A DNA stretch of 64,000 nucleotides from the NCBI GenBank assembly GCA_963664325.2, contig CAXXDQ010000008.1, positions 64,001-128,000 of the forward strand, written 5' to 3'. Shown here piece by piece: positions 2,235 to 27,370 of the stretch. The stretch is from Desulfomonilia bacterium. Lineage in GTDB: Bacteria > Desulfobacterota > Desulfomonilia > UBA1062. The stretch's first letter is position 1; each line of letters opens with the position of its first letter. The position numbers and the translations under genes are program-made. The notes below the pieces were generated by a model. That model was not told the DNA's origin and searched no databases. It saw only the letters and a list, made by a program, of their open reading frames with translations.

Positions 2235-2246
2235 TGAGGAGTAAAG

Positions 2247-3720: not shown

Positions 3721-3775
3721 TCGGATAGGTGCTTTTCACGGTAAAAGCAATTGAGGACTTCATTTAATAAGTCAA

Positions 3776-3803
3776 TTCGGGAAGGCGCTTATGCCTTCCC
3801 GAA
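3776..3803. terminator. Intergenic hairpin TTCGGGAAGGC/GCCTTCCCGAA
   Basis: 11-bp perfect inverted repeat between genes; no clear U-tail. Confidence 0.45.
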
Positions 3804-3893
3804 AATCCGATAACCGGGTTGCCCGGCCGTATCGGACGGTTTTGCGAATCGATTGGCTCCGAGGACAGGAGCGTGCGACAGGAGAAGTTTGCA

Positions 3894-5187
3894 ATGGAGA
3901 CAATAAAACCGGGGCCGCTTTCCGGCCTGACGGTACTGGATTTTACATGGGTTCTCGCGGGGCCTCATGCCACGAAAACGCTGACCGACATGGGAGCCCA
4001 TGTCATTAAAGTTGAACACTACAAAAATGGAACCAATGAACGGGCACAAAATCTCCGGGTTCAGCATAATGGTGTGATCCAAAGTTCCTACCACATCCAT
4101 CTGAACCGAGGGAAAAAAAGCACCTGCATCAATCTCAAGCATCCCAAGGGAATCGGAATCATCCATGGCTTGCTCAGGAAAAGCGACATCGTGATTGAAA
4201 ACTTTGCCCCGGGGGTTATGGACCGATTGAAGTTGGATTACGACTCAGTCAAGAAGATTAAGCCGGATATCATTTATTGTTCCATTTCTTGTTTTCGGCC
4301 ATTGGGGTCCCTACAGCCATAAACCGGGTTATGATGTCATTGCTCAAGCAGCAAGCGGATGGACAAGCCAAAGCGAGCCTCCTATCATGGCGCCTGTTTC
4401 GATCGGCGATACAACGGCGTCCATGCATGCCTGCACTGCCATCCTGGCTGCCGTCTATAACAGGATCATGACGGGGAAAGGACAAAACATCGATATCTCC
4501 ATGGTGGACTGTCTGTTCTCACTTCACGAGAATGCGGTTCCCTGGTTTTTTATCAGTGACGCAGCGGGTAATCCGGTCAGGATGCCCAGAACGGGTCAGA
4601 AAAGCCCGGCCAATGCCCCTTACGGAATCTACAACGCTAAAAACGGGTGCATTGCTATTGCCAGTCTCACGGCTAATCGCTGGCCGCAGCTCATTGAACT
4701 CATGGGACCGGAATATGCCTGGCTGAAGGAAGATCCCCGGCTGCAGGATCCTGCCAGCCGTATCAGTATGGAAAATGCGCCGCTGATTCATGAAGCCTTG
4801 GAGAGCTGGGTCCAGTCGCAGGATTCCGTCGAGGAGACCGAGAGAAAATTGGAGGATGCCGGGATTCCCTGTTCTCGGGTGAAAGACTTGATCGAACTGG
4901 CAACAGAGGACCCTCATATGGAGGCGAGGGAAATGCGGCCCGAGAGGTATCAACCCTTTATCGGGAACATGAAGATGTACGGCAGTCCTTTGAAATTCTC
5001 GGAAACGCCTTCCACGATTCGTGGATATGCGCCTCTCCTGGGAGAGCACAATCAAGAAATTCTCTCGACCTTTCTGAATTACTCTGATCGGGAGATAGAG
5101 TCGCTCTATCAAGAGGATGTTCTGTATCACGCTCCGGAAGTAGAGAAGCTGCCGGATGAATTGAAAAAGGCAAATAAACAGGAATAA
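3894..5187 (+). CDS. CaiB/BaiF family III CoA-transferase, frameshift near 4290
   Basis: GPLSGLTVLDFTWVLAGP, LNRGKKS, ENFAPG, IGDTTAS, APLLGEHN. Confidence 0.9.
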
Positions 5188-10436: not shown

Positions 10437-11201
10437 ATGATGATCCTTGATCAATTCAGACTCAACGGCAAGACAGCCATCGTGACAGGCGCCCGGACCG
10501 GCCTGGGGCAGGGTATGGCCTGCGGCCTGGCAGAGGCCGGTGCCGACATTGTGGGCATTGATTTGACCGGCATGGAAGAAACGAAGAAGGCCATCGAGGG
10601 CCTGGGCAGGATTTTTTTGCCCGTGGAAGCCGATCTTTCGGATATACGGGTCATTGACGGCATCATGCAAAAAGCCGTTGCCGCCTTCGGCAAGGTCCAT
10701 ATCCTGATCAACAACGCCGGCATCATCCGCAGGACCGACGCCATCGAATTCAGCGAACAGGACTGGGATGAGGTCATGAATATCAACCTGAAAACGGTTT
10801 TTTTCTTTTCCCAGGCCGTGGCCCGGCAATTCCTCAAACAGGGCGGCGGCGGAAAGATCATCAATGTCGCATCGCTCCTTTCCTATCAGGGCGGAATCCG
10901 CGTCCCCTCCTACACGGCAAGTAAAAGCGGGGTCATGGGCATCACCCGGCTTATGGCAAACGAGTGGGCCGCCCATGCCATCAATGTCAACGCCATTGCG
11001 CCCGGCTATATGGCAACGGATAACACGGCGCCGCTGCGGGCGGACCCGAAGAGAAGCAGCGAGATCCTGGGCCGGATACCGGCAGGACGCTGGGGGTTGC
11101 CCGAGGATCTCAAAGGCGTGGCGGTCTTTCTGGCGTCTGCCGCCTCAAGCTACATAAACGGCTATACGATTGCCGTGGACGGCGGGTGGCTTGCGCGGTA
11201 A
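10437..11201 (+). CDS. kduD: 2-dehydro-3-deoxy-D-gluconate 5-dehydrogenase
   Basis: SDR with QGGIRVPSYTASKSG and C-terminal VDGGWLAR; follows kduI. Confidence 0.93.
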   Translation: MMILDQFRLNGKTAIVTGARTGLGQGMACGLAEAGADIVGIDLTGMEETKKAIEGLGRIFLPVEADLSDIRVIDGIMQKAVAAFGKVHILINNAGIIRRTDAIEFSEQDWDEVMNINLKTVFFFSQAVARQFLKQGGGGKIINVASLLSYQGGIRVPSYTASKSGVMGITRLMANEWAAHAINVNAIAPGYMATDNTAPLRADPKRSSEILGRIPAGRWGLPEDLKGVAVFLASAASSYINGYTIAVDGGWLAR

Positions 11202-11387: not shown

Positions 11388-11404
11388 TTGGGGCCGGACC
11401 AAGT
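11388..11404 (+). repeat. Family-B element end (degenerate) TTGGGGCCGGACCAAGT
   Basis: Similar to GGGGTCGTACCAAGT at 22133 and the reverse complement at 14173-14192; preceded by GCTTTG micro-repeats. Confidence 0.5.
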
Positions 11405-11452
11405 GACGTGGATTAATTTTCTTATGATAGACATATAGCCCCCTGCTTTATA

Positions 11453-11806
11453 TCATAAAAAAACCTTGTAGCTGATATTCAGGACCTTCCCCAGACGCTT
11501 TGCCATTTCCTTGCCAATGGGACGCTTGCCGTTTTCCATTTCGGAGATATGGCGCTGAGGAATCCCGATCAACTCGGCGAGTTTTATCTGTGTTAAGCCT
11601 TCCCGGTATCTTGACCCGGCCAGGGCCTTACCGATCAACTGGACTTCGGAACATTCAGGATACGCATCCCGCCAGGGAACGGCGTCGGATGTATCCTGAA
11701 ACCCCAGGGGTTTCAAGGTTTCAATGGCGGCCGCCATGTTCACAACAGGACCAATGAACCGTAGTTCAACGGTTTCAGTAGGGCGCTTTTTCGTGTGTGC
11801 CTGCAT
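11453..11806 (-). CDS. XRE/HTH antitoxin-like regulator (HigA-like)
   Basis: GLTQIKLAELIGIPQRHISEMENGKRPIG HTH; downstream of the RelE-like gene. Confidence 0.8.
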   Translation of the reverse strand: MQAHTKKRPTETVELRFIGPVVNMAAAIETLKPLGFQDTSDAVPWRDAYPECSEVQLIGKALAGSRYREGLTQIKLAELIGIPQRHISEMENGKRPIGKEMAKRLGKVLNISYKVFL

Positions 11807-12053
11807 ATGTCACCTCAATCAGTTTTATCTCTTTATTCATGACCTCCCATATTGCCACATAGGTCGGATGACCTTTCTTCAAGTGGCAATGGTAGCGGTT
11901 TTCGGACAGGGCGCTAAAATTTGGCCAGTCGCCCCGGATCGGCCCATTCGCTTCCATGTCCTTTTTCAATGCAACGAGAAGGTTCTGAACCTTTATCGGC
12001 AATTTTCTGACTCGTTTATTCAGCGACCGTCTTTCTGTAACCGTCCATATCAT
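11775..12053 (-). CDS. RelE/HigB-like toxin
   Basis: 92 aa basic protein with YHCHLKKG and YAGTHEKAPY; toxin-then-HTH order. Confidence 0.7.
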   Translation of the reverse strand: MIWTVTERRSLNKRVRKLPIKVQNLLVALKKDMEANGPIRGDWPNFSALSENRYHCHLKKGHPTYVAIWEVMNKEIKLIEVTYAGTHEKAPY

Positions 12054-12485
12054 GGCTCAATCCTATACCAAAAAAAAGTATAAGGCAAACGATTTCTGTT
12101 TATGGAATGGGGGAATGGGGGGGGGGACCCAATGCCCCATTCCATCTATTCATCCATGATCGGCGAATGAGCCCGAAGCGGTTTTTCTGACGGGGCCAGC
12201 TTTTACTATCTGCACGGATATGTACCCAAAATGAGTTGACGGCAAGTCTAGCTGCAATTTCGGCACTATCGGACAAGACAAAAGTGCTCAATACCATGGT
12301 ACTCAACGGCATTGTGCATTACCTAATATTTTTTGGCAGAAAATGGGGCTTTTGACAAAAATACGTCAGCGTCGTACGTGTTTTTGAATTTCTTATTGAA
12401 ATCAAATAGATGAAGCCTTTCGCATGGGAAAATTTTTTTTGCCTGTTTTTTCACCAATAATAGCAGGCCAGTATGAGGTCGTTTC

Positions 12486-13954
12486 CAATGTCATTGACTT
12501 AACGAATGGGTTTATAGGCGTAATAGAACTCCCTTTGGTTTTTATGGTCCCTTGGAAAGATTCTGCCTGCTCTGACGGGTTCTTTAGATCGAACAAATAA
12601 GCTTAGTAATTTATTTATTAAATCCAGAAGGTTGTGATGTTTAAAGAGGAGGACGATGGTGTCTTTCATTTTGGACAGGGCCTGAGTGACATTGATTTTG
12701 TAAGGATACTTTTTGGCATCGACTTGCTGATCGATGATATCCTGTGCCGGGAGAGTGAGAGCAGCCGTTATGTTCATGGCAAACATTTTGGCGTGGAAAT
12801 CCTGGTATATGGATTCGATGGTTTTGCCGGAGAAATTTTCAATTTGGACACGTTGCTTTGCCGTTTTAAAGTTTTCTTCAGCCATCCAGCGCAGGTGGTA
12901 GAGTTTTTTGAAAATACCATGAGGATAGCGCTTCGTGTCCATAAGTGAAGTGACCAGGATTTCGGTTTTTCCACCTTTGAGTTTCACTCTGATGGCGCGT
13001 ACCTGAAAAGGAACGATGGAGAGGTTTAGTTCATTACATTTTTTACGGGAGACCACGCTTGGATACAGGGTGATGATCTGTTCTTTATCCTGGGATAAAA
13101 AGAAGTTTCTGACCGAATCCCAATGAGCCTCCTTAATCCTGCTACAGAAATGCCCACCTTTGGCAAGAATCAGGGCGAAAAACCAGAATGCCGGGTAGCC
13201 TCTATCCAAAAGAACCAGGTCCCCTGTTCTGAACTGCTCTGCATGTGAAATGGCCAGAGATCTTTCTCCTTGCTCTTTTGGACAGATAAGAGCATCAACG
13301 ACAAGACCGTTTAAGACATCATGTAGCTGAGAGATTCTGGCGACAGGGCATTCACCACCCCTGTTTGAATGCCACACGCCGAAATGATCGGCAATCTTCC
13401 TGATTCTGGGGATTCGGACTGTTGAGCCATCGATGGCCATCAAGCGAAACCCTTTCCATTTCCGGCAGGAAAAGTGTTCATAGAAAAAGGAGATCAACTT
13501 CCGGTTCAGCGCGATAAAAGCTTGATGGCGAAGTTTTCTTCGGGCTTTGGTGAAGGCGCTTTTCGTGACCCTTCTTTCCGCCGTGTCTTTTTCATGAATG
13601 ATCTTGAAAAAATAATCCAATTCATCCTGAATGGAGCCCTTGATGAGATTAATGAGGAAAAAGATGATGGTGTGGAATGGAAGAATCCGTTGCCGGACAA
13701 AATCATTAGGACAGCGGCGGAATTGATCTAAAAAAGTTTGGGAAGTGATAATATTTTTAAGAAATTCAATAAGATTGGCACAATTTTTCAAACGCAGGTT
13801 CCATGCCACCTTGACCGTTTGTTTGAAGAATTTTTGACATTATTTTCTCCCTCCCGGAATTATTTTGCCTTCCATCAAAACCATGGCAAATATATCATAA
13901 CTACATGTATTTGCAAGCTAAATAAACAATTTATCCCTTAAGTCAATGGCATTG
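12486..13954 (-). mobile_element. IS4-family insertion sequence, copy 1 (1469 bp)
   Basis: 17-bp TIRs CAATGTCATTGACTTAA / TTAAGTCAATGGCATTG; 10-bp TSD AGGTCGTTTC (12476-12485, 13955-13964). Confidence 0.92.
12499..13809 (-). CDS. IS4-family DDE transposase
   Basis: AIDGST, LLDRGY, and a YREK-like motif YHLRWMAEENFK. Confidence 0.92.
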   Translation of the reverse strand: MAWNLRLKNCANLIEFLKNIITSQTFLDQFRRCPNDFVRQRILPFHTIIFFLINLIKGSIQDELDYFFKIIHEKDTAERRVTKSAFTKARRKLRHQAFIALNRKLISFFYEHFSCRKWKGFRLMAIDGSTVRIPRIRKIADHFGVWHSNRGGECPVARISQLHDVLNGLVVDALICPKEQGERSLAISHAEQFRTGDLVLLDRGYPAFWFFALILAKGGHFCSRIKEAHWDSVRNFFLSQDKEQIITLYPSVVSRKKCNELNLSIVPFQVRAIRVKLKGGKTEILVTSLMDTKRYPHGIFKKLYHLRWMAEENFKTAKQRVQIENFSGKTIESIYQDFHAKMFAMNITAALTLPAQDIIDQQVDAKKYPYKINVTQALSKMKDTIVLLFKHHNLLDLINKLLSLFVRSKEPVRAGRIFPRDHKNQREFYYAYKPIR

Positions 13955-14161
13955 AGGTCGTTTCCAAGGTCATGGAGTTAGGCCCGATGGCTCCCCTCTT
14001 TGCAAAGAGATGGTGTCATGGATGAAAAATAATGACGGCGTTTTACGTTTCATGTCCACCGCCTATGACGATGAAGAAACCATTTCATTTTTTCTGGTCA
14101 AAAAACATGATTTAAAACCCTAAATAGGCCATTTATTTAAATATTAACTCATGATTTCCAA

Positions 14162-14192
14162 TACTTAACTTGTACTTAACTTGGTCCGACCC
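14162..14192 (-). repeat. Family-B element end with tandem micro-duplication (TACTTAACTTG x2 then GTCCGACCCG)
   Basis: Reverse complement matches GGGGTCGTACCAAGTTAAGTA at 22133. Confidence 0.7.
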
Positions 14193-14347
14193 GTTTGATG
14201 TCGTTTCCTCCTTTATTTGTCGTCTACCAGCCATCTTCGTAACTTAATTTCGTTTTTAAAATCCGGATCATATGGGTGTATTGGGGGCAATCCCAATTTT
14301 GACAATATTTTTTTGAAATGATCAGGGCCGTCTTTACTTGTAACGAA

Positions 14348-14455
14348 TGAAACATTGGGGTCAGCCCTTGACACGATGAAACATTGGGGTCAGTGAAACA
14401 TTGGGGTCAGCCCTTGACACGGGACAATATGCCTTCCAACACCTTCATTTCCTCG
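14348..14455 (+). repeat. Three tandem family-A ends (TGAAACATTGGGGTCAG); the last continues into the transposase 3' sequence
   Basis: Matches the 3' end of the Y1 transposase element starting at 19475. Confidence 0.9.
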
Positions 14456-14495
14456 ATCTGTATTGGTGTCCGTCTCCTCTTTTATTCGCCTCCCA

Positions 14496-15341
14496 TTAAG
14501 GGGACTTGGCAAGACGGAATCCTATATTTGCGTATCTTAAATCTTGACCGCAAAAGTGTCTTTTTATTGAAGTACAATCCTCTGCGCTGCTTATAGTACT
14601 GCCACCCCTGATACCCGCAGTTGAACCTGAATCGAAATCTTCACCCGAATATTGCACCCACTCAAAGACATTGCCTGCCATATCATAAAACCCCAAATCA
14701 TTTGGCTTCTTCTTTCCAACAGGATGATTTTTTCCTCCGGAATTTTTTTCGTACCAAGCATAATGTTCGAGGTCTTCAGTTTTACTTGTGCCAGCCCATC
14801 TTTCTTTTTTACCTCCACTGCGAGCTGCGTATTCCCATTCGGCTTCTGTTGGCATGCGATAATTCTGACCAGTTCTCATGTTTAATTTATGGATAAATTC
14901 TTTTATTTGGACCCAACTTACGTTTTCCACCGGGCATTCATCACCACAATTATCAAAATAAGACGGATTACCCAGCCATTTTTTTAATTGCTTATATATG
15001 CCGATAAAACTCAATTCCGTGGTGCTATTATTGGGTGTGTCGCTTAAAAAGCCCATCACTTGTTTCCACTGCCTTTGTGTAACTTCGTATTTTCCAAGAT
15101 AAAAGTCCCCAAGACAAACTTCTTTGACCGGTTCATTATTATAATTTTGTTGATCGACATATGTTAATGTTGCACCCATCTGATAACAGCCGCTTTTCAC
15201 GAGTATAAGCTCTATGGGTTCAATTTTACTTGGCGCCATGATCCAGACGGCAGCACAGGCAATAGAGATAAAAGCAATAAACAAGAACATCTTAAATACT
15301 TTTCTCGGGCTTGTAGGGTCGAATTGCTTGATTTTATGCAT
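14496..15341 (-). CDS. Formylglycine-generating enzyme (SUMF1/FGE-sulfatase) domain protein with N-terminal TM anchor
   Basis: KYEVTQ, CPVENVSW, RMPTEAEWEYAAR, DMAGNVFEW, IGFRLA; low GC. Confidence 0.9.
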   Translation of the reverse strand: MHKIKQFDPTSPRKVFKMFLFIAFISIACAAVWIMAPSKIEPIELILVKSGCYQMGATLTYVDQQNYNNEPVKEVCLGDFYLGKYEVTQRQWKQVMGFLSDTPNNSTTELSFIGIYKQLKKWLGNPSYFDNCGDECPVENVSWVQIKEFIHKLNMRTGQNYRMPTEAEWEYAARSGGKKERWAGTSKTEDLEHYAWYEKNSGGKNHPVGKKKPNDLGFYDMAGNVFEWVQYSGEDFDSGSTAGIRGGSTISSAEDCTSIKRHFCGQDLRYANIGFRLAKSP

Positions 15342-15609
15342 TTATATTGAATTGAATTGATTGTTAAATCTTATTGATAAGCACTCACTTTTTGAGGAAG
15401 GACTATAAGTAAAATGTTATTGTATGTCAAGGTAAAATTTCTACAATATTTAATGGTGATTGTAAATGCTTGGTGTAGTTCTGCCGAAGAGGGCATCATT
15501 TTTATAATTTGCCGCTTTTTTCGATGTTCGAGGAACTGCATTGGGGTCACCCATTAAAAGGCAGCTGTCAAGAGAAAAAAATACTTCCTGCACAATGAAG
15601 AGCTGTATT

Positions 15610-15766
15610 GGGGTCAGTCCTTGACACAGGACAATATGCCTTCCAACACCTTCATTTCCTCGTGCAAATCCGGATTCGTGGTCATTTCTTTTGCGAATCG
15701 CTGATAGGCTTTCGCTACCGCCGCTGTTCCCATACCCGTCAATGTCCCATGTCAAGGGCTGACCCC
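15610..15766. mobile_element. 157-bp non-autonomous (MITE-like) derivative of the Y1 element
   Basis: GGGGTCAGTCCTTGACACAGGACA + transposase 3' end (~129 bp) joined to TGTCCCATGTCAAGGGCTGACCCC. Confidence 0.88.
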
Positions 15767-15776
15767 TTTGCGTCGA

Positions 15777-17660
15777 TTAAAAGGAGAAAAGGGTCCCATC
15801 TTCAAAGCGGCGGAGAAAGTGTCCCACGGAAAAGCCGCGTAAGAGTTTCGGCCAGTAACACCTCATTCCGCCATCTGCAGCAATCTGTTCGCCGGACCAC
15901 TGCATCATCTGTTCGAGTTTCTCCAGGTCCAGCGTCCGTGCCGCCAGATCGGCCTTTTTCATGCGGGCCAGCTCGGCAAGGGCCTCTTCCCTTTGCTTTT
16001 CAAAGTGGATAGGAAAGTCCGCCGCCTGGAGACCCCGGCGCTGCTCCGTGCGGACCTGTTCCGGCAGCCGGCCGACCATTGCATTACGGATCAGCGATCT
16101 GGGCACGCCCTTTTCGCAGTAGTATTCGACAGGCACGGAAAGGCAGAATTCAATCACTTTCCGGTCCGCGGTCGGATCAAGCCTCGAAATGCCTGTTAAG
16201 CGCCTGAACGCATCATAAACTGCTCCGACTTCAGGCCTGCGTAAATGGAGAATCCGCAACGCACTCGGGGAACGTTCATTGTTCCGGTCCAATGCCATGG
16301 AATCAAGTCCGTGACGATGGGCGAATTCGCGCCGGATCATGGAGTAGTCAAACAATCCTCTGGTGTTGCCTCGCGTTCTATTAATAAGACCGCGAAGTTC
16401 CAGCGGAATCCATGGAGTTAACGCTTCGTAAACGATACCGGGCCAGCGACGCGAACCGTAATGCCGCATATCCCGGGCCAGCCTGGTCATCGCCATAAAG
16501 CGTCTTTCTGATGCGAGCAGACACAGTGCCAGCCGGCCATTATAACTGATGCTGATGTTTCCTAAAGTTCCGACCAGGAGGGTGTCGAGTTTGAGTTGCC
16601 GCGCTTGCAGGCTGCTCTCATAGATCCAGTCATAGTTTGCCGGATTAAAGATCGGCTCCATCAGCTCCGCACTGAAGAGGTCCATCAATGCAAAGACGGA
16701 GTGGCGTCCATGGCGGACAAGAACATGGTCCACATTCGGCCACATCGCGGCGACCGATGCGGCGGCCTGGCCTTCGTCACAAAAACGCCCGGCGAGATCG
16801 GCCTCCGGGTGCACCGGGACCGCTGTGAAGGCATGGAGACGGCGGTTTTCATTGTTCAGGATTTCCGCAGCCAGGGAGGTTACGGTGGAGCTGTCCAGAC
16901 CTCCGCTCAACAGCGCGCCTGCGTCGGCACGAGCGGGCAAATGGTCACGGATAGCTTGCGTGAGTACATCCCGCAGCCCATCGGCATATTCCCTGGAATC
17001 CTTGAGATGAAGCGGCGAAATCTTTTCCGGGTGCCAGTAAACGTCTCGCGCAATTCGACCCTGCTCGAAGCTAAGGACGCTTCCCGGTATCATGCGATAG
17101 ACGTTTTCGAAGAAAGTGCTGTCGCTTCCGACATGGGTCAGGGAAAGCCAGCGGGCCAGGTAGTTTTCATTGATGCGGGGAGTCGTCCCCGCTGCCGCCA
17201 GCAGATCACGCAGGTCCCTGGCAAAGAAAAATGATTCACCGTGCTGCGCATAAAAAAGGGCAAAGCTTCCTTCCGGCCCGCATCCCAGCAGTAAGCGGGC
17301 TGCGGCCTGATCCCAGAGGGCAAAGACAAACTCTCCTTCGAGATATCCGGGAAACCCGGCACCCCACCTCCGGTACGCGCGAAGCAGAAGTTCCGGCTCG
17401 CTCAGCGGCCCTGCATCAAGTTGGGCGGCCAGTTCTCTTGAATTGCAGATCCTGCCGTCAAGGAGGATGCCAAAGTCGTCGGCACAGGCGCTGAAAGACT
17501 GTGCCTGAAGCTCGAGACGATAATTGCCCAGCTGGCAGAGCCGAACTGAACGCGCCTCCCTGATCCCTTGCACAGCGCCTTCAATCCCGACACGAGCCGA
17601 GACAACACCGCAGAAAGACGAAGGTTGCATGGCGCCTTCAGGTGGACTGGTTTGAATCAA
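15777..17660 (-). CDS. Lasso peptide isopeptide-bond-forming cyclase (asparagine synthetase-like, C protein)
   Basis: LSGGLDSS ATP motif, DPTADRKVIEFCLSVP; adjacent to precursor, PqqD/RRE and kinase. Confidence 0.85.
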   Translation of the reverse strand: MIQTSPPEGAMQPSSFCGVVSARVGIEGAVQGIREARSVRLCQLGNYRLELQAQSFSACADDFGILLDGRICNSRELAAQLDAGPLSEPELLLRAYRRWGAGFPGYLEGEFVFALWDQAAARLLLGCGPEGSFALFYAQHGESFFFARDLRDLLAAAGTTPRINENYLARWLSLTHVGSDSTFFENVYRMIPGSVLSFEQGRIARDVYWHPEKISPLHLKDSREYADGLRDVLTQAIRDHLPARADAGALLSGGLDSSTVTSLAAEILNNENRRLHAFTAVPVHPEADLAGRFCDEGQAAASVAAMWPNVDHVLVRHGRHSVFALMDLFSAELMEPIFNPANYDWIYESSLQARQLKLDTLLVGTLGNISISYNGRLALCLLASERRFMAMTRLARDMRHYGSRRWPGIVYEALTPWIPLELRGLINRTRGNTRGLFDYSMIRREFAHRHGLDSMALDRNNERSPSALRILHLRRPEVGAVYDAFRRLTGISRLDPTADRKVIEFCLSVPVEYYCEKGVPRSLIRNAMVGRLPEQVRTEQRRGLQAADFPIHFEKQREEALAELARMKKADLAARTLDLEKLEQMMQWSGEQIAADGGMRCYWPKLLRGFSVGHFLRRFEDGTLFSF

Positions 17661-17710
17661 CCGGTTTATTTTGCGACACTTCTTTTGAAGCTGAATTTCC
17701 AGCGGCCACG

Positions 17711-17866
17711 CTATGAAAAATGTAAATCAATATCAGATGATGGATCTACGAACCCTTCTTCGGTTTGATCCACGTCCATTTCCTCAAACGCTGGTGTCTG
17801 CCACGGTTTAAGTTCCGTTACTTCCTTGTTTGGGGAGAAAATCACAAGGCGAGAGTCTTCTTTCAT
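17711..17866 (-). CDS. Lasso peptide precursor (paeninodin-like), 51 aa MKEDSRLVIFSPNKEVTELKPWQTPAFEEMDVDQTEEGFVDPSSDIDLHFS
   Basis: AGGAGG RBS before ATG 17866; WxxP leader motif (KPWQTP), Thr near the leader end, Asp ring acceptor, C-terminal Ser. Confidence 0.8.
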   Translation of the reverse strand: MKEDSRLVIFSPNKEVTELKPWQTPAFEEMDVDQTEEGFVDPSSDIDLHFS

Positions 17867-17944
17867 GTTTCCTCCTGAAGGCCTAATCAAAGGCGATTTT
17901 GAAAAGTGGATGTTGGCACTACCTGCACACCCGAAACGTGGCAA

Positions 17945-17974
17945 AGGATATCGGAGCTGCCATCGTGCTGTCAA
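17945..17974 (-). promoter_or_regulatory. Putative internal sigma70 promoter for the precursor gene
   Basis: TTGACA-18 bp-TATCCT on the minus strand. Confidence 0.4.
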
Positions 17975-18019
17975 GGAAAAGTTACGGCATCATGGCATTA
18001 TTGCATGATTATATGTTGT

Positions 18020-18310
18020 TTATACGATAGCGATCAGCCTCTTGGCGATCATGCCTTTCAAAAAATCCGCCACACCTGTCCGGCATTGCTCCTCTTCCAC
18101 CCTGTATTCAGTCAGCAGCGCCGCCACGATATCCTTCATGGCGAGCGGTTTTTCGATCAAATCCCAGATCCGGCTCGCCACAGCGTCCAGACTGTAGTAT
18201 TTTCCGTTTTCAATGCTCATCATCACCCATTGGCCGTCCATGTCAGTGGCAACGATCCCGGCCGCACGAACCACTAAGGTATCAGCACTCAGTATCTGCT
18301 TTAATGTCAT
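18020..18310 (-). CDS. PqqD/RRE leader-binding protein (lasso B1)
   Basis: MDGQWVMMSIENGKYYSLDAVASRIWDLI...EYRVEEEQC pattern. Confidence 0.9.
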   Translation of the reverse strand: MTLKQILSADTLVVRAAGIVATDMDGQWVMMSIENGKYYSLDAVASRIWDLIEKPLAMKDIVAALLTEYRVEEEQCRTGVADFLKGMIAKRLIAIV

Positions 18311-19349
18311 TCTTCAAATATCCTTTACTTTTCGCATGGTTAGGGTTAGCGCCGGAAATAGGTCCCGCCATCAGTTCCTCCACCAATTGCGCCTGTTTCG
18401 CAACGGAAAACTTTCCGCTGGGCCTCAGCAAACGGCAGACCTGAATCTGCTTCGACACGACCGCGCAACGTCTAAAATGCTCTGTTTTTAAGCCCAGCCC
18501 GGCCAACAGAAATCGTCGATAGGTATGCCTGAAGAGCACCGCGATTTTGTCCGGACCCGCGAGCCGAATCATGGCGGCCTCGGGACGGTTCTCGGCCCGC
18601 AGTTCAAAGATCGACGCCAAACGGATTGGATTCCGACAAAACCCCGTGTCCACGGCCACGGCATATTTGTCCATCCCTGACAGGATCGTCGGAAACGCGC
18701 TGACATCCATTCCCATATTATCCGCGCTGTCTTTCCACAGTTTCTGCTGCGGATAGCCGGGTTGCACGCAGGGCACATTTCCTTCGCCTATGGTTACGAC
18801 CGACACGTCATCGCTCAGAAAACCGGAGCCGCGATCCCGCAACGCCGCCACCAGGGTGGACTTACCCGCCCCGGAAGTTCCTGTAATGATTGCGGCTTGC
18901 CCTTTGATCTCGACGGCGCTTCCGTGGATCGGCAAAACCCCGCGCTGCATGAGCAGAGCGCCGAAAGCCGTCCCGAGAAGGAATAATCTGATCCTGCGGG
19001 GTTCAGCCGCCTGATCGGGCTCTACAACGATTCGCTTTCCGTCGGCGACATAGTAACGGCCCGCCTGCGCCGCGCGGAGGAGAAACTGGTTTGCGGCCGC
19101 CTGATAACGGTCATTGCTGACCAGTGCTTCCGGAATTTCCTGCGGTGTTTCGCCCAAAACGATCCGCACATCAGGAACCCCCTCCGTTGTTTCGAGCTCG
19201 TGGAAGAAGATATCCGAAGCGATATTCACGCCGAACGCCCGGAAAAGGAAAGGCTGTCCGCGGCCATGGATTGTTCGTCCCCCATAACCCGGGGTATGGA
19301 TGGCCTTCGATTTGAGATCTCGCAAATCCGAGCATTGTTGAGGATTCAT
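18282..19349 (-). CDS. HPr kinase-like lasso peptide kinase (PadeK-like)
   Basis: PIHGSAV, P-loop GTSGAGKST, FLSDD; within the lasso cluster. Confidence 0.82.
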   Translation of the reverse strand: MNPQQCSDLRDLKSKAIHTPGYGGRTIHGRGQPFLFRAFGVNIASDIFFHELETTEGVPDVRIVLGETPQEIPEALVSNDRYQAAANQFLLRAAQAGRYYVADGKRIVVEPDQAAEPRRIRLFLLGTAFGALLMQRGVLPIHGSAVEIKGQAAIITGTSGAGKSTLVAALRDRGSGFLSDDVSVVTIGEGNVPCVQPGYPQQKLWKDSADNMGMDVSAFPTILSGMDKYAVAVDTGFCRNPIRLASIFELRAENRPEAAMIRLAGPDKIAVLFRHTYRRFLLAGLGLKTEHFRRCAVVSKQIQVCRLLRPSGKFSVAKQAQLVEELMAGPISGANPNHAKSKGYLKNDIKADTEC

Positions 19350-19404
19350 ACTGCTAAACTTACCGGTATTATTTGATAAGATTCGCTGTGCTGTTTTGTC
19401 GGCG

Positions 19405-19434
19405 AGTATAAGTGAGACCTCGTGGGAATGTCAA
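19405..19434 (-). promoter_or_regulatory. sigma70 promoter of the lasso operon
   Basis: TTGACA-18 bp-TATACT on the minus strand. Confidence 0.6.
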
Positions 19435-19474
19435 CCCAAAATTGACCACCCCTGAGTGTGATGGCGAGTGTGAT

Positions 19475-20525
19475 GGGGTCAGCCCTTGACACGGGACAAA
19501 TTGCCCTCCAACACCTTCATTTCCTTCTGCAAATCCGGATTCGTGGTCAGCTCTTTTGCGAATCGCTGATAGGCTTTCGCTACCGCCGCTGTTCCCATAC
19601 CCGCCAATAAATCGCCAATCTCCCGGTTGGTGGCGCTTGTATGTTTTTTCAGAAGATAAAGGCATCTTCTCTTGATGTCATTTCGCTCCCTGTTTATCAC
19701 TGATTTCAATGTAAGTCCGTAATGAGAACATAATGCTGAAACAATCTCCTCCGGCAGCAGTTTTGCACGCAAAATCCTCCGGTTCGATATGTCTGCCTTT
19801 GTCAGTCGTATTGCTTCTATCTTCCTCAATACTTCTTTGATAAAATCCGAACCGCCAAGAATAATTCCTCCGTAGACTTTCTTAAAGGGGCTTTCGATTT
19901 CCCCTCCCAATGCACTCTCCACAAAGGACTTGTACTTCGTTTTGGCCGCATCCGGATTGGACTCAAGCATTGCCAGAATGGTTGTGGTGTCGACAAGACT
20001 GTCGCTATTCATCGTCGTATAGGCATTGTAGCTGCTGTATGGATAATCTTCCGGTTTTTCCACTATCTTCGCCCGAACGGGATTAAGGTGCAGATATCTG
20101 CTCAATTCAAGAAGGTAGCTGTCTCTTTCAACGACGATTGATTTGAACCGGCCTTGGAAAAGATGGCCACTGCGCTTTCTTTTAATATTGCCATACGTGG
20201 TGTAAGAACCGTTTATATAATGCATCACCTTGCTGAGATTCTTCTCCGGTGTCTCAATAAGCAGATGATAGTGGTTCGTCATAAGGACGTATCCCCGGAT
20301 AATGACCCCATATTTTTCCACGGCAGCCGCAAGGTATTCCTTGAATTTTTCGTAATCCCTTTGGCTAAAGAATATCTTCTGACGCTCATTTCCACGGGCT
20401 GTCACATGGAAAATTGCACCTTCGTATTCAATCCGTAACGGTCTTGCCACTTTTTCACCGCCAATCAATGGCCAGGAAATATGATGGTTTGTCTTGTGAA
20501 ATGTCCCATGTCAAGGGCTGACCCC
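19475..20525 (-). mobile_element. Y1/HUH (RAYT-like) transposase element with 24-bp terminal inverted repeats (1051 bp)
   Basis: GGGGTCAGCCCTTGACACGGGACA ... TGTCCCATGTCAAGGGCTGACCCC (1 mismatch). Confidence 0.85.
19479..20468 (-). CDS. Y1_Tnp HUH transposase (REP-associated tyrosine transposase-like) with C-terminal HTH
   Basis: ARPLRIEY, HVTARGN, MTNHYHLL (HUH), GHLFQGRF, YLHLNPVRA, YPYSSY; probable true start at GTG (VARPLR). Confidence 0.9.
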   Translation of the reverse strand: MIGGEKVARPLRIEYEGAIFHVTARGNERQKIFFSQRDYEKFKEYLAAAVEKYGVIIRGYVLMTNHYHLLIETPEKNLSKVMHYINGSYTTYGNIKRKRSGHLFQGRFKSIVVERDSYLLELSRYLHLNPVRAKIVEKPEDYPYSSYNAYTTMNSDSLVDTTTILAMLESNPDAAKTKYKSFVESALGGEIESPFKKVYGGIILGGSDFIKEVLRKIEAIRLTKADISNRRILRAKLLPEEIVSALCSHYGLTLKSVINRERNDIKRRCLYLLKKHTSATNREIGDLLAGMGTAAVAKAYQRFAKELTTNPDLQKEMKVLEGNLSRVKG

Positions 20526-20532
20526 TTTGCTT

Positions 20533-20833
20533 CCTTGCTGAGATTCTTCTCCCGGTGTCTCAATAAGCAGATCGATAGTTTCCGTCATAAGGACGTATCC
20601 CCGGATAATGACTCCATATTTCTTCACGGCAGCCCGCAAACGTATTCCTTGAATTTTTCGTAATCCCTTTGGCTAAAGAATATCTTCTGACGCTCATTTC
20701 CACGGGCTGTCACATGGAAAATTGCACCCTCATATTCAATCCGTAAGGGTCTTGCCACTTTTTCACCGCCAATCAATGGCCAGGAAATATGATGGTTTGT
20801 CTTGTGAAATGTCCCATGTCAAGGGCTGACCCC
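20533..20833 (-). repeat. Tandem partial duplicate of the transposase 5' end plus TIR
   Basis: Repeats ~20230-20525 with several indels; ends ...AAGGGCTGACCCC. Confidence 0.85.
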
Positions 20834-20859
20834 TTTGCTTCTGCATTTTCTGGTCTCTT

Positions 20860-22090
20860 TCGTGAGTTATCAATGTGATTATTCTTAATCGCTGCGCAAA
20901 TCAGGCAACAATCTCAAGTACGGGTTCTTACTCGGAAATTTGTCATCGGAAGTCATTATCCCAATCGTAGCCATACGGGATGGTGCAATGGGTACAGTAT
21001 ATTTCATCTATGCGGTGAGCCATCGTGGACACGGTGAACGTCTATCAGCCATGTTGACGACTTCGTTACCCCCAGCATACTCCCCATCCGGCGAAACGGC
21101 TGCACTGAATCGATCAGAGCCGCCATCGAGATACCCTGTCTGATGGTTTCCGTCCTGTGCGAATAGAGATAATATTTTCCCGCAAGGCCGGCTGCTCGTA
21201 AAAAAGAGACGTTGTGCCGTCTTTACTCAACAAGAGGCTTTTGATAGGAGGATGTCCCTTTTTCAAAAAGATGGTAGGGCCGCTGGGGTAAAACATCTCC
21301 ATGCCTTTCATGGTGAGAACGCCAACGAGGTAAACGTTATTCTTTCTCGCTTCTTCCCAGTATCAATCCTCTTTTGCTGGCATTAGGCGCTCATCGTTTC
21401 GGCATGACGTTAGTCCGGGGAAAGGCAAAGGGTCAGTTCTGCATAGTAGAGGAACTTCTCGTCATCGCCGGGGAATATAACAAACGCTAACCCATATAGG
21501 AAGTATTCATAGAATGCGTCAGACTGGGTTTCTTTTCGCCTGTTTCCAGATATCCACTTCCCAGGCGTCGTATCCCGATGCCGGTGTTCCACGGCCCTGT
21601 CTTCCTGATGCGGCTGGCACTTTCACATACAGGACCTTCTTCCCGGATTGTGAGAAAATGCCGGGTATAGAGCTTAGGGAAAGGGCTGGAGGTGAGTTTC
21701 CGGTAAAGTTTTTGCCATCTGTATCCATGACGGCAATCTGCATCTCGCATTAGATCGAAATTTTTTTCACCTAACGGGTATGGTACGGAAAAGACGTAAT
21801 TTTCGATCCCATCATAGGAATACTTTCGCCATGGTCCAGCGTTGCTCCTTTCGGCGGCGGCTGGTAGGCGTTGCCAGTTCTCCCGTTTGCAAGATCATAG
21901 ACCTGAATCTGGCAGTCTATAATCCCGGCAACGATCAAAAAACAAGTTTCTTACCATCGTGTGAAAAACTGAGATGATCAATGGTGATCTTTTATTTTAT
22001 CTGTCATGGCACAGTCGCACAACCTCCTATAGACATTGTTAAAATAGAGACGGGAAGAATAAAAAATAACAACAACAATTGTCTCGTCAT
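20860..22090 (-). pseudogene. TolB/PD40-like beta-propeller lipoprotein, heavily frameshifted
   Basis: MTRQLLLLFFILPVSILTMSIGGC lipobox at ATG 22090; fragments SFSHDGKKLVF, MQIAVMDTDGKN, FSQSGKKVLYVK; 3' end approximate. Confidence 0.6.
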
Positions 22091-22132
22091 TTGGCTGCGT
22101 GTCTGAAGTATCTGGGGCGGAAATAGCAATTT

Positions 22133-22153
22133 GGGGTCGTACCAAGTTAAGTA
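22133..22153 (+). repeat. Family-B element end GGGGTCGTACCAAGTTAAGTA
   Basis: Inverted match to 14173-14192. Confidence 0.7.
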
Positions 22154-22274
22154 GCTTAGATATCTCAGGTGATATTCCATGTTAACCCCCTGTTTTTATG
22201 CCCAAAATCATCATTTTTGGCGTCAAAATGAACATCTTCACAATGGCACGGCCATCTCCCAGCTCACTGGATCT

Positions 22275-22616
22275 TTATCCTCTCTTCATTGGCCGGCTGC
22301 GGGGCCGAGATATCGATAGAATGCCGTTGGCCGCTTCATAACGGCGGATGAGGTTGCCCAGCATGACGGCCATGCGCTTTGCCGTCTTCAACGATACGGC
22401 CATTTTGGCTTCTATGCGGACGGTTTTGGGATCTATGGATGAATTGCCGAACAGAAATACGACTGCTTCCGGCCCGAAGCCGATGTTGAAGACGCCCGCG
22501 TATTGCGTTTTCACGCCTTCCTCGATAAACCGGACCGGCGTTTGCCCCGGCCCGTCACCTTCCTGTCTTTCCGCTTTTTGCCTTTGCTTATCCTGTGAAT
22601 TGTCGTTTTGGTCCAT
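22275..22616 (-). CDS. DUF3467-like protein, copy 1
   Basis: YAGVFNIGFGPEAVVFLFG, SLKTAKRM; near-identical to 25047-25418 with a C-terminal frameshift. Confidence 0.65.
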   Translation of the reverse strand: MDQNDNSQDKQRQKAERQEGDGPGQTPVRFIEEGVKTQYAGVFNIGFGPEAVVFLFGNSSIDPKTVRIEAKMAVSLKTAKRMAVMLGNLIRRYEAANGILSISRPRSRPMKRG

Positions 22617-22973
22617 GATACCAAGCTCTCCCTCTTATTTTTTCACGTTTGGGTTGTCTCTGTAAGCATATCAGCCACTCGGATTGTGTTTATTTTTAAA
22701 GGACTTTTATTGTTTTTTCCGGGTAACGATTGTGACAAGAGCGTTAAAACAAATAAGGTATCATTTAACACTATGCCGAAAATGACATAATGAGTTTTTT
22801 ATGTCAAGGGAAAATTTCATCATTTTGACTCATTTAATATCAAAGGTATGTAATATTATAATTGATAAAATGTATTAAATATATTACCAATACCTTGACC
22901 TAGGTTTAAAACATCAGGATCAGATTGATAAGAATAGCAATTAATGTATTGCGGAATGCTTTGATTGGCTTTT

Positions 22974-23035
22974 TAACACGGCGCTGCTGCGGCCGGAGCC
23001 GAAAAGAAGCAGCGAGATCCTGGGGCGGATACCGG
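22974..23035 (+). repeat. 62-bp diverged copy of kduD internal sequence (11021-11082)
   Basis: TAACACGGCGCTGCTGCGGCCGGAGCCGAAAAGAAGCAGCGAGATCCTGGGGCGGATACCGG vs TAACACGGCGCCGCTGCGGGCGGACCCGAAGAGAAGCAGCGAGATCCTGGGCCGGATACCGG. Confidence 0.85.
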
Positions 23036-23308
23036 ATGAGCAAAGAACGGATATGTACGCAAAATGAGTTGACGGCAAGTCTTGCCGCAATTTCGGCACT
23101 ATCGGACAAGACAAAGATGCTCAATGCCATGGTACTAGGCATTACCTAATATTTTTTGGCAAAAAATGGGGCCTTTGACAAAAATACGTCAGCGTCGTAC
23201 GTGTTTTTGAATTTCGTATTGAATTCGTATAGATGAAGCTTTTCACATGGGAAAATTTTTTTTGCCTGTTTTTCCGCCAATAATAGCAGGTCAGTATGAG
23301 GTCGTTTC

Positions 23309-24777
23309 CAATGTCATTGACTTAACGAATGGGTTTATAGGCGTAATAGAACTCCCTTTGGATTTTATGGTCCCTTGGGAAAGTCCTCCCCGTCCTGACG
23401 GGTTCTTTAGAGCGAACAAATAAGCTTAGTAATTTATTTATTAAATCCAGAAGGTTGTGATGTTTAAAGAGGAGGACGATGGTGTCTTTCATTTTGGACA
23501 GGGCCTGAGTGACATTGATTTTGTAAGGATACTTTTTGGCATCGACTTGCTGATCGATGATATCCTGTGCCGGGAGAGTGAGAGCAGCCGTTATGTTCAT
23601 GGCAAACATTTTGGCGTGAAAATCCTGGTAAATGGATTCGATGGTTTTACCGGAGAAATTTTCAATTTGGACACGTTGCTTTGCCGTTTTAAAGTTTTCT
23701 TCAGCCACCCAGCGCAGGTGGTAGAGTTTTTTGAAAATACCATGAGGATAGCGCTTCGTGTCCATAAGTGAAGTGACCAGGATTTCGGTTTTTCCACCTT
23801 TGAGTTTCACCCTGATGGCGCGTACCTGAAAGGGAACGATGGAGAGATTCAATTCATTACATTTTTTGCGGGATACCAAGCTTGGATACAGGGTGATGAT
23901 CTGTTCTTTATCCTGGGATAAAAAGAAGTTTCTGACCGAATCCCAATGAGCCTCCTTAATCCTGCTACAGAAATGCCCACCTTTGGCAAGAATCAGGGCG
24001 AAAAACCAGAATGCCGGGTAGCCTCTATCCAAAAGAACCAGGTCCCCTGCTCTGAACTGCTCTGCATGTGAAATGGCCAGTGATCTTTCTCCTTGCTCTT
24101 TGGGACAGATAAGAGCATCAACGACAAGACCGTTTAAGACATCATGTAGCTGAGAGATTCTGGCGACAGGGCATTCACCTCCCCTGTTTGAATGCCACAC
24201 GCCGAAATGATCGGCAATCTTCCTGATTCTGGGTATTCGGACCGTCGAGCCATCTATGGCCATCAAGCGAAACCCTTTCCATTTCCGACAGGAAAAATGT
24301 TCATAGAAAAAGGAGATCAACTTCCGGTTCAGCGCGATAAAAGCTTGATGGCGAAGTTTTCTTCGGGCTTTGGTGAAGGCGCTTTTCGTGACCCCTCTTT
24401 CAGCAGTGTCTTTTTCATGCATGATCTTGAAAAAATAATCCAATTCATCCTGAATGGAGCCCTTGATGAGATTAATGAGGAAAAAGATGATGGTGTGGAA
24501 TGGAAGAATCCGTTGTCGGACAAAATCATTAGGACAGCGGCGGAATTGATCTAAAAAAGTTTGGGAAGTGATAATATTTTTAAGGAATTCAATAAGATTG
24601 GCACAATTTTTCAAACGCAGGTTCCATGCCACCTTGACCGTTTGTTTGAAGAATTTTTGACATTATTTTCTCCCTCCCGGAATTATTTTGCCTTCCATCA
24701 AAACCATGGCAAATATATCATAACTACATGTATTTGCAAGCTAAATAAACAATTTATCCCTTAAGTCAATGGCATTG
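23309..24777 (-). mobile_element. IS4-family insertion sequence, copy 2 (1469 bp)
   Basis: Same TIRs and same TSD AGGTCGTTTC (23299-23308, 24778-24787). Confidence 0.92.
23322..24632 (-). CDS. IS4-family DDE transposase
   Basis: 436 aa, 8 visible substitutions versus copy 1. Confidence 0.92.
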   Translation of the reverse strand: MAWNLRLKNCANLIEFLKNIITSQTFLDQFRRCPNDFVRQRILPFHTIIFFLINLIKGSIQDELDYFFKIMHEKDTAERGVTKSAFTKARRKLRHQAFIALNRKLISFFYEHFSCRKWKGFRLMAIDGSTVRIPRIRKIADHFGVWHSNRGGECPVARISQLHDVLNGLVVDALICPKEQGERSLAISHAEQFRAGDLVLLDRGYPAFWFFALILAKGGHFCSRIKEAHWDSVRNFFLSQDKEQIITLYPSLVSRKKCNELNLSIVPFQVRAIRVKLKGGKTEILVTSLMDTKRYPHGIFKKLYHLRWVAEENFKTAKQRVQIENFSGKTIESIYQDFHAKMFAMNITAALTLPAQDIIDQQVDAKKYPYKINVTQALSKMKDTIVLLFKHHNLLDLINKLLSLFVRSKEPVRTGRTFPRDHKIQREFYYAYKPIR

Positions 24778-24955
24778 AGGTCGTTTCCAAGGTCATGGAG
24801 TTAAGGATGATTCCTCTCATGTCCTCCGCCGGCGGCGGATATGAGAGGAATGCCTTCAGTTAATCGCATGAAGGTGATCTCCGGGCATTACTTTGGCCCT
24901 GCCTTCATCCCCCCATTATGCGCATCATCGCAATCCAGCCACATACTGAAACAAC

Positions 24956-25013
24956 GGGGTCACCCCTTGACACGGGACATTATGCCCTCCAACACCTCCA
25001 CCTTCTGCAATCC
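24956..25013 (+). repeat. Diverged family-A end fragment
   Basis: GGGGTCACCCCTTGACACGGGACATTATGCCCTCCAACACC, preceded by TGAAACA as at 14348. Confidence 0.85.
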
Positions 25014-25046
25014 TGTATCCGTAGTTTTGCAATGTCGCTTTCCCGC

Positions 25047-25418
25047 TCACTGGATCTTTATCCTCTCTTCATTTGCGGGCTGCGGGGCCGAGATATCGAT
25101 GGTGCCGTTGGCCGCTTCATAACGGCGGATGAGGTTGCCCAGCATGACGGCCATGCGCTTTGCCGTCTTCAACGATACGGCCATTTTGGATTCTATCTGC
25201 ACAGTCCTGGGGTCCAGGGATGAATTCCCGAAGATAAACAGCACCGCATCCGGTCCGAAGCCGATGTTGAAGACCCCGGCATACTGCGTCTTGACGCCTT
25301 CTTCGATAAACCGGACCGGCTTTTGCCATTGCCCCAGTCCGTCATCTTCGTGTCTTGCCGCTTTTTGCTTCTGCTTGTCTTGGGCCCTCTTTTCTATATA
25401 AAATAACGGCAGCCGCAT
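25047..25418 (-). CDS. DUF3467-like protein, copy 2
   Basis: YAGVFNIGFGPDAVLFIFG; start uncertain. Confidence 0.65.
   Translation of the reverse strand: MRLPLFYIEKRAQDKQKQKAARHEDDGLGQWQKPVRFIEEGVKTQYAGVFNIGFGPDAVLFIFGNSSLDPRTVQIESKMAVSLKTAKRMAVMLGNLIRRYEAANGTIDISAPQPANEERIKIQ

Positions 25419-25489: not shown

Positions 25490-27370
<1,881 letters not shown>

Follow-up and report, generated by a model that had tools for sequence, protein, structure and literature searches.

RAYT-like genes that lie between long terminal inverted repeats have been named TIRtrons or TIRYTs (Di Nocera et al., 2013; PMC3733652). Many of the repeats share the sequence GGGGWSAS, some overlap the ends of the gene, and besides single copies there are dimers and groups of them (Di Nocera et al., 2013). 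A later classification places most TIRYTs in subclass 2.1 and gives those of 2.1.2 a Bac_DnaA_C-like C-terminus (Quentin et al., 2018; PMC6006769). Elements of this kind are very common yet almost unstudied, and no biochemical work on TIRYTs was found among the few papers identified that use the term. Here, we describe a locus in a 64,000-nucleotide (nt) stretch of DNA from a Desulfomonilia bacterium (GenBank assembly GCA_963664325.2, contig CAXXDQ010000008.1, positions 64,001 to 128,000; hereafter the window), in which a gene for a Y1 nuclease of the HUH superfamily, several copies of a short repeat that starts with GGGG and a row of unrelated gene modules occur together. A preliminary description of this DNA had seen in it an integron-like platform for the capture or shuffling of gene cassettes, run by the Y1 enzyme. 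We favor a different reading, to which we assign a probability of about 0.7, namely that the ends are TIRtron terminal inverted repeats and that the locus consists of one intact element plus local debris in a rearranged island. The supposed cassettes would then be DNA located between insertions and rearrangement breakpoints, not units captured by an enzyme.

The element and its nuclease

The intact element comprises the following features, with the evidence for each in brackets.

19475..20525, minus strand: intact TIRtron of 1,051 bp with 24-bp terminal inverted repeats (inverted pair of 24 nt, 96% complementary)
19475..19498, plus strand: left terminal repeat, on the 3' side of the gene (17-mer search, inverted pair)
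20502..20525, minus strand: right terminal repeat, on the 5' side of the gene, with TTGACA facing the gene (inverted pair, alignment of ends)
19479..20468, minus strand: TIRYT gene, encoding a RAYT-like HUH Y1 nuclease with a DnaA-domain-IV-like helix-turn-helix (HTH) (Pfam, NCBIfam, alignment)

Judged by its sequence, the 1,051-bp element is a TIRtron encoding a TIRYT, a kind of element already in print. The open reading frame (ORF) has 329 amino acids (aa); from the alignment with homologs, translation probably starts at codon 7, a GTG near 20450, and the stop codon is within the left repeat, which encodes the final residues, SRVKG. The protein matches the Pfam families Y1_Tnp (3.4e-13) and, as a single protein at a score weaker than the Pfam cut-off, Bac_DnaA_C (1.2e-4), and it scores 84 bits with the NCBIfam model REP_Tyr_transpos (cut-off 80). 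When the protein was aligned with 18 homologs of 40-71% identity, H66 and H68 of the HUH motif and Y125 (in a motif around LSRYxHLNP) were invariant in all 19 sequences; these are the catalytic residues of the family. A profile of the 19 homologs matches the DNA-binding domain (domain IV) of DnaA structures (4.5e-8); a search of the PDB with the single TIRYT protein returned 0 hits. The end sequence, GGGGTCAG, fits the published GGGGWSAS repeat start. Each trait by which a TIRtron with its TIRYT is recognized is present, that is, the HUH motif with its tyrosine, the long inverted repeats, GGGGWSAS and an HTH of the subclass 2.1 type.

The likeness to the elements in the published accounts extends from the RAYT-like Y1 protein, its Bac_DnaA_C-like C-terminus and the GGGGWSAS long inverted repeats to the downstream repeat that overlaps the 3' end of the gene and to the occurrence of repeats singly, as dimers or in groups. 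The window family differs in being confined to one locus, where two direct copies bracket a gene, and in that the consensus quoted from those accounts is 8 nt long, whereas a 24-mer is kept across phyla in the genomes sampled here. The preliminary description was thus right to assign the ends to an HUH Y1 enzyme whose gene lies in the locus, and right that they are abutted by unrelated accessory modules.

The same design recurs among homologs of the nuclease. Of 8,000 candidates examined in a word-indexed protein search, more than 7,600 scored as homologs; Y1_Tnp and Bac_DnaA_C occur together in nearly all of the 120 that were listed, and their source annotation is transposase or RayT. Both repeats were found at fixed distances around 42 of 49 full-length homologs from metagenome contigs (43-69% identity), giving elements of 1,010-1,100 bp with repeats 0-7 mismatches from the 24-mer and a stop codon inside the downstream repeat; four of the seven others are cut by a contig end. 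The upstream repeat contains TTGACA. In stretches L032, L041, L048, L064 and L078 from other genomes, a -10 hexamer that resembles TAAGAT or TAATAT lies at a distance of 17 nt from it, so the upstream repeat would double as a promoter of the TIRYT gene, built into the element end, though the window copy has a poor -10 hexamer at this place. A single repeat, when tested for a hairpin, folds no better than shuffled sequences (z about -0.5 to -0.8). With the A-rich flank included, predicted folding allows a 5-bp stem to be drawn at the tip, with a loop in which 5 bases are unpaired, and a shifted yet equivalent stem can be drawn for a paralog repeat family; this fold is a lead.

Other known systems share part of this design. 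As in RAYTs with their repetitive extragenic palindromic (REP) sequences and REPINs, the nuclease belongs to the same superfamily and passes the NCBIfam RAYT model, inverted short repeats flank the gene, and non-autonomous doublets are able to fold as hairpins. The window element differs from them in having no significant single-repeat hairpin and no GTAG tag (its tip is GGGG), in the extra HTH of its protein and in its 8 copies at one locus instead of hundreds dispersed; a RAYT/REPIN system was rejected on the hairpin, the copies and the tip. HUH Y1 chemistry is shared with IS200/IS605 insertion sequences of the IS608 type, by analogy with which a single-strand mechanism would be the natural expectation, but the ends in the window are inverted repeats instead of subterminal hairpins on one strand and there is no tnpB. 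Membership in that family was rejected on the inverted ends and on a score of 21.9 bits with the NCBIfam model transpos_IS200 (cut-off 55). Ends of the Tn3 type, considered because of the GGGG start, were dropped as a candidate, as the Y1 gene and the published TIRYT consensus fit.

Copies of the terminal repeat at the locus

The repeat family of these ends (family A) was searched for in the window as a 17-mer with at most 3 mismatches, with 100 shuffles as background. There were 9 matches versus 0.15 expected, and 0 of the 100 shuffles reached 9. Eight of the matches are at coordinates given in the preliminary description.

14357, 14403, 15610, 19475 and 24956, plus strand: family-A ends (17-mer search)
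ending at 15766, 20525 and 20833, minus strand: family-A ends (17-mer search)

The ninth match (6378), with its 3 mismatches, is probably fortuitous, and a partial end at 14386 is 8 nt only. By inverted-pair analysis the true length of the repeat is 24 nt, with plus and minus copies 96% complementary. A scan of the genome for this end had been proposed earlier, with random scatter over the genome and no variation of cargo between strains as an outcome that would speak against the platform; in the whole assembly (4.3 Mb in 9 contigs, 95.6% complete), 8 of 8 copies with at most 2 mismatches lie within the locus, which spans 10.6 kb and thus holds all copies of the family in the genome. Because the matches are 9 against 0.15 expected and all genome copies are in the locus, the GGGGTC-type ends are real and beyond chance, as had been claimed.

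Self-comparison of the window DNA revealed that several of the copies are derived from others.

15610..15766: miniature inverted-repeat transposable element (MITE) of 157 bp, an internal-deletion derivative in which ~134 nt from the left side are joined to the right repeat
20533..20841, minus strand: tandem duplicate of the 5' part of the TIRYT gene, the right repeat (20810-20833) and 8 nt of outer flank (self-comparison)
14348..14455, plus strand: stuttered left-end remnant (repeat families, self-comparison)
24947..25010, plus strand: diverged left-end remnant, inside a segmental duplication (self-comparison)
12474..13984, minus strand: IS4-family insertion sequence, copy 1 (NCBIfam transpos_IS4_1, 166.6 bits, cut-off 115)
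23297..24807, minus strand: IS4-family insertion sequence, copy 2, in the duplicated block 23047-24803 (self-comparison)

The MITE has both terminal repeats and matching internal sequence and lacks a transposase gene. Its left part (15609-15743) is 92.6% identical to 19474-19608 and its right part (15741-15774) 97% identical to 20500-20533; its arms pair as single-stranded DNA, with z = -1.9 for the predicted fold of the whole. The tandem duplication, of 308 bp, relates 20228-20533 to 20533-20841 at 95.5% over 310 nt, and the gene fragment in the duplicate carries 3 stop codons (tblastn). The end at 24956 lies in a segmental duplication that keeps the order of its parts, from 11021-11082, 12214-13980 and 14394-14447 to 22974-23035, 23047-24803 and 24947-25000. 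Within it, the IS4 blocks are 96.2% identical over 1,767 nt (12214-13980), the left-end remnants (14394-14447 versus 24947-25000) are 89% identical with 9 nt of outer flank included, and the remnant (24956-25010) is 86% identical to the left end of the intact element (19475-19532).

The three sites at 14357, 14386 and 14403 are one micro-tandem, in which a 9-nt flank recurs in front of 20 nt of the end, of 8 nt and of the full end, the last with a further 32 nt from the 3' end of the TIRYT gene. The same architecture (window 14348-14421) is found in L159, from an unrelated genome (at 2020-2130 and 3890-4060), and in the stuttered ends of both genomes the reiterated unit comprises 9-13 nt of outer flank and 2-26 nt of the repeat, a pattern suggesting that restart or template switching took place repeatedly at the tip.

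With the duplications removed, the independent ends reduce to those of a single intact element and a single MITE, together with one or two left-end remnants. The family-A sites listed in the preliminary description, other than that at 15543, are real but not all independent: the end at 20833, that at 24956 and the trio at 14357, 14386 and 14403 stem from duplications. Similarly, the outer-flank bias reported there, GACCCC followed by TTTGC, does occur three times, but two of the three belong to the tandem duplicate.

The repeat in other genomes

An exact search with the 24-mer, using one genome per species, found it in more than 116 stretches across phyla, 80 of which were kept for a breakdown by arrangement.

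57 of 80: single end
11 of 80: dimer of 51-188 bp
8 of 80: full element (one interrupted)
3 of 80: two ends in direct orientation
1 of 80: divergent pair

Hosts include Thermodesulfobacteriota, Nitrospirota, Spirochaetota, Clostridia, Thermotogaceae, Dehalococcoidales, proteobacteria and one archaeal bin. Three ends were found in one of the 80 stretches, L039, which is a full element. From one copy to another, the 24-mer is embedded in unrelated DNA on either side. Purines prevail in its outer flank, where A has a frequency of 50-63% at positions -1 to -3 versus a background of 27%. The flank ATGAAAC is common to the window and to L047, that is, to 2 of ~200 ends, which may be chance. Within the window's own class, the end occurs with at most 2 mismatches in 4 of 122 genomes, a distribution that fits horizontal spread. 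Among the copies of the end in other genomes, gene-holding arrays are rare.

Copies are not always confined to one locus. In five other genomes there are 2-18 ends each, dispersed and strand-biased (one strand carries 13 of the 18 ends in one genome and 7 of the 9 in another), and neighboring pairs of ends in those five are repeated MITE-like units in islands rich in toxin-antitoxin (TA) pairs and insertion sequences. The ends are reiterated locally without genes in L159, L155 and L157; L159, the densest cluster outside the window, has spacers of 31-374 bp, ORFs within the cluster not having been called.

Modules and borders of the island

The modules between the ends of the locus are as follows.

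14496..15341, minus strand: FGE-sulfatase-domain gene of low GC, between two left-type ends in direct orientation (Pfam, 2.4e-39)
15777..19349, minus strand: lasso-peptide cluster with an HPr-kinase-like gene, PqqD chaperone, candidate precursor and cyclase (Pfam, NCBIfam)
11453..12053, minus strand: putative TA pair of an HTH_3 antitoxin and an upstream 92-aa partner (Pfam, NCBIfam)

Together with the Y1 gene and two DUF3467 genes, these bear out most of the modules named in the preliminary description, all on the minus strand, but not its TolB-like lipoprotein. Six short ORFs tried in 20940-22180 gave 0 Pfam families, and the supposed TolB-like gene in 20845-22365 is in fragments. No family match was obtained for the 92-aa toxin partner or for a stretch described earlier as an orphan gene tail. 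The DUF3467 genes (22259-22595 and 25042-25382; 86% DNA identity) bracket the second IS4 block.

In the lasso cluster, the precursor candidate is weak, no transporter is present within 15777-19349, and a search of the genome for the family of the B2 protease, PF13471 (Transglut_core3), found none. Orthologs of the cyclase are absent from 121 other genomes of the class, where its best match is 31% identical. A DNA search of 9-28 kb of the window against 40 relatives found no counterpart of the island; matches were limited to the Y1 gene, short motifs of conserved genes, a 34-nt repeat at 15543 and a carbamoyltransferase gene of the right flank. The flank genes for carbamoyltransferase and KduI were not found with the queries used in 3 genomes of the same genus and 2 of the same family, and no empty site can be defined. 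There were 0 Rfam families in 9-28 kb and 0 tRNA genes in the window that could serve as island borders. The locus is probably a horizontally acquired, rearranged patchwork island.

Its key junctions are real, because they are crossed with 0 differences by short-read contigs, 14422/14426-15658 being covered in two runs and 15742-19504 by a contig of run X1. Frame shifts split many genes of the window; they are probably indel errors of a long-read assembly, or else mark pseudogenes. Split genes in 1019-5187 and 25502-27309, for a periplasmic binding protein, HpaB, a CoA-transferase and a carbamoyltransferase, are spread over two or three frames.

Origin of the locus

The anatomy of the element, its family membership, the duplications and the distribution of the repeat in other genomes are established by the comparisons above, and from these we infer each of the enzymatic steps that follow. 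The HTH domain would bind the repeat, and the Y1 domain would nick one strand at the tip, beside the purine- or A-rich flank. Re-initiation, or local one-ended events, could then re-copy ends in direct orientation at distances of 17 bp to ~1 kb, and deletion or recombination at such copies may fuse DNA segments that are unrelated to each other.

Several observations weigh against an origin of the locus as one TIRtron and its debris. The borders of modules and the steps in GC content fall exactly at the tips (15609/15610, 15766/15767 and 19474/19475), with 36-44% in the FGE module, 54-61% in the lasso cluster and 44-45% in the element, the changes occurring at the MITE and at the left tip of the intact element. 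The stop codon of the cyclase is 11 bp from a repeat tip, and the lasso cluster looks truncated there. Every gene of the island is on the strand of the transposase (minus), while both flanks are on the plus strand. Among 112 ends from other genomes, 82 have no detectable transposase remnant alongside (remnants shorter than ~20 residues being missed), so decay of full copies is not an obvious explanation of solo ends. The order of right end, Y1 gene or remnant, left end, co-oriented gene and left end is found both in the window, with the FGE gene, and independently in L039, where positions 94-1977 hold a left end, a 300-aa nucleotidyltransferase ORF with a PolyA_pol head domain, a left end, the TIRYT gene and a right end; this ORF begins 1 nt away from one tip and terminates at the stop codon within the next repeat, its C-terminus being SRVKG. 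Also, TA genes lie between direct ends in L047 (2228-3260; Gp49-like plus antidote) and L026 (136-2162; HicA/HicB plus CopG), transcribed in the direction that a Y1 gene would have. Lastly, contigs of two runs (X2 and X4) contain, at the depth of the locus, a left-plus-right dimer of ~65 bp that joins 19500/19504 back to 15740 through 5-10 other letters. The unitigs do not resolve its outer flanks; the dimer could reflect the lasso segment as a circle or in tandem, a co-occurring strain with a mini-MITE in the place of the element, or an element from a different organism.

If TIRYT enzymes also act on direct ends, a gene between two ends on the same strand would be a cassette, excised with one end as a single-stranded circle and inserted at another end. 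This would be a Y1-HUH analogue of an integron, and we regard it as unlikely. The bracketed genes for the FGE-sulfatase protein, the nucleotidyltransferase and the TA pairs are of the expected form, with cargo oriented as the Y1 gene would be in that position; the tips coincide with GC steps and module borders; and the 24-mer is conserved between flanks that are unrelated on both sides. Two direct ends would also place both recognition sites on one strand, as a single-strand Y1 enzyme should need, and relatives in the IS200/IS605 family are reported to move via single-stranded circles. However, no tip faces the cargo at the left border of the FGE unit; a duplicated stretch of 56 nt lies there, made up of an end and adjoining inner sequence, a structure that fits duplication too. 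Few of the ends are independent, several being accounted for by duplications; arrays that hold genes are rare elsewhere, as judged by the single stretch with three ends, and the densest cluster (L159) has short spacers and the same stutter of flank plus partial end. Strand bias alone, as seen in two genomes, can make neighboring ends direct, and the same cargo was not found in two contexts. Neither a skip nor a circle of an end-bounded unit, nor an empty-site form, was seen in the contigs of three runs of one sample, although contigs drop rare forms; the circular cassette junctions for which the preliminary description had suggested a search were not among them either.

The resemblance to integrons on which the capture platform was modeled is real in part, since co-oriented accessory genes, and in other genomes TA pairs, are separated by one conserved short site. 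It differs in that the sites in the window are in both orientations and bound few independent units, and no integrase-type tyrosine recombinase was present among the ORFs scanned with Pfam in 9-28 kb, the rest of the genome not having been searched. With few independent ends, an element of known type and mostly solo ends elsewhere, the platform as proposed is not supported, though it stays a minority reading. Another route by which a mobile element can acquire neighboring genes is offered by IS91/ISCR rolling-circle elements, whose HUH enzymes have two catalytic tyrosines and whose ends are dissimilar, and in which one-ended events can carry adjacent genes; in the window, by contrast, the cargo is bounded by a second copy of the same end.

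It is also quite improbable that the locus is a composite transposon, in which the left end of the MITE (15610) and the right end of the intact element (20525) would move the lasso cluster and the transposase as one unit of 4.9 kb. Those two ends are correctly inverted with the transposase inside, and the lasso cluster lacks an ortholog in the 121 other genomes of the class, but there are two extra internal ends, the cluster looks truncated, and neither the genome nor the sampled stretches yielded a second copy of the unit or another context for it. An assembly artefact, by which a long-read metagenome with indel errors and mixed strains was joined chimerically at repeats, is very improbable, for although many genes are frame-split and 21020-21520 lacks short-read contig cover, next to a variant haplotype that is ~5% different and has several small gaps, the contigs without differences across the key junctions and the match of the element's design to 42 of 49 independent homologs speak against it.

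The choice between the debris of one TIRtron and enzyme action on direct ends matters beyond this locus. If the latter were true, arrays of Y1 gene, end, cargo and end would grow downstream of the transposase, the TA pairs, the nucleotidyltransferase and the FGE gene would be movable, and the predominance of bare solo sites among the copies of the 24-mer, with unrelated DNA on either side, would find an explanation. The enzyme would then provide a new route of gene capture; if it does not act in this way, the locus is an ordinary junkyard of mobile elements. In either case, the locus is a compact natural series that runs from an intact element through a MITE and stuttered ends to a gene lying between direct ends, and, together with the cross-phylum 24-mer and its purine-rich flank, it offers concrete substrates for a first test of cutting and joining in vitro.

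Other repeat families and paralogs in the genome

Two further repeats at the locus are not part of family A.

14173..14192, minus strand: family-B repeat, with partners at 22133-22153 (plus) and, weaker, at 11388-11409 (plus)
15543..15574, plus strand: solo end of another repeat family, 32 nt (copies at C3:1031378 and C7:57207)

The family-B ends named in the preliminary description were recovered, the copies at 14192 and 22133 being 95% complementary and that at 11388 weaker (84% over 19 nt). Family B is a separate low-copy repeat family of five copies, all on the contig of the window; the two copies outside the window, at C8:1286 and C8:2537, are inverted and flank BrnT-type and ParE-type TA pairs. 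The repeat at 15543, which had been taken for a partial family-A end, belongs instead to the other family listed above, and it is kept at 91-94% over 34 nt in several relatives. Its copy at C7:57207 lies ~130 bp from a paralog-type end and is inverted with respect to it.

The genome also contains four further Y1 genes of the TIRYT type (P1-P4). No flanking inverted repeats were found around P4, and P1-P3 each have their own. A MITE-like pair is present near P1 and a solo end near P2, and ~20 more sites of a related, paralog-type repeat are dispersed over five contigs.

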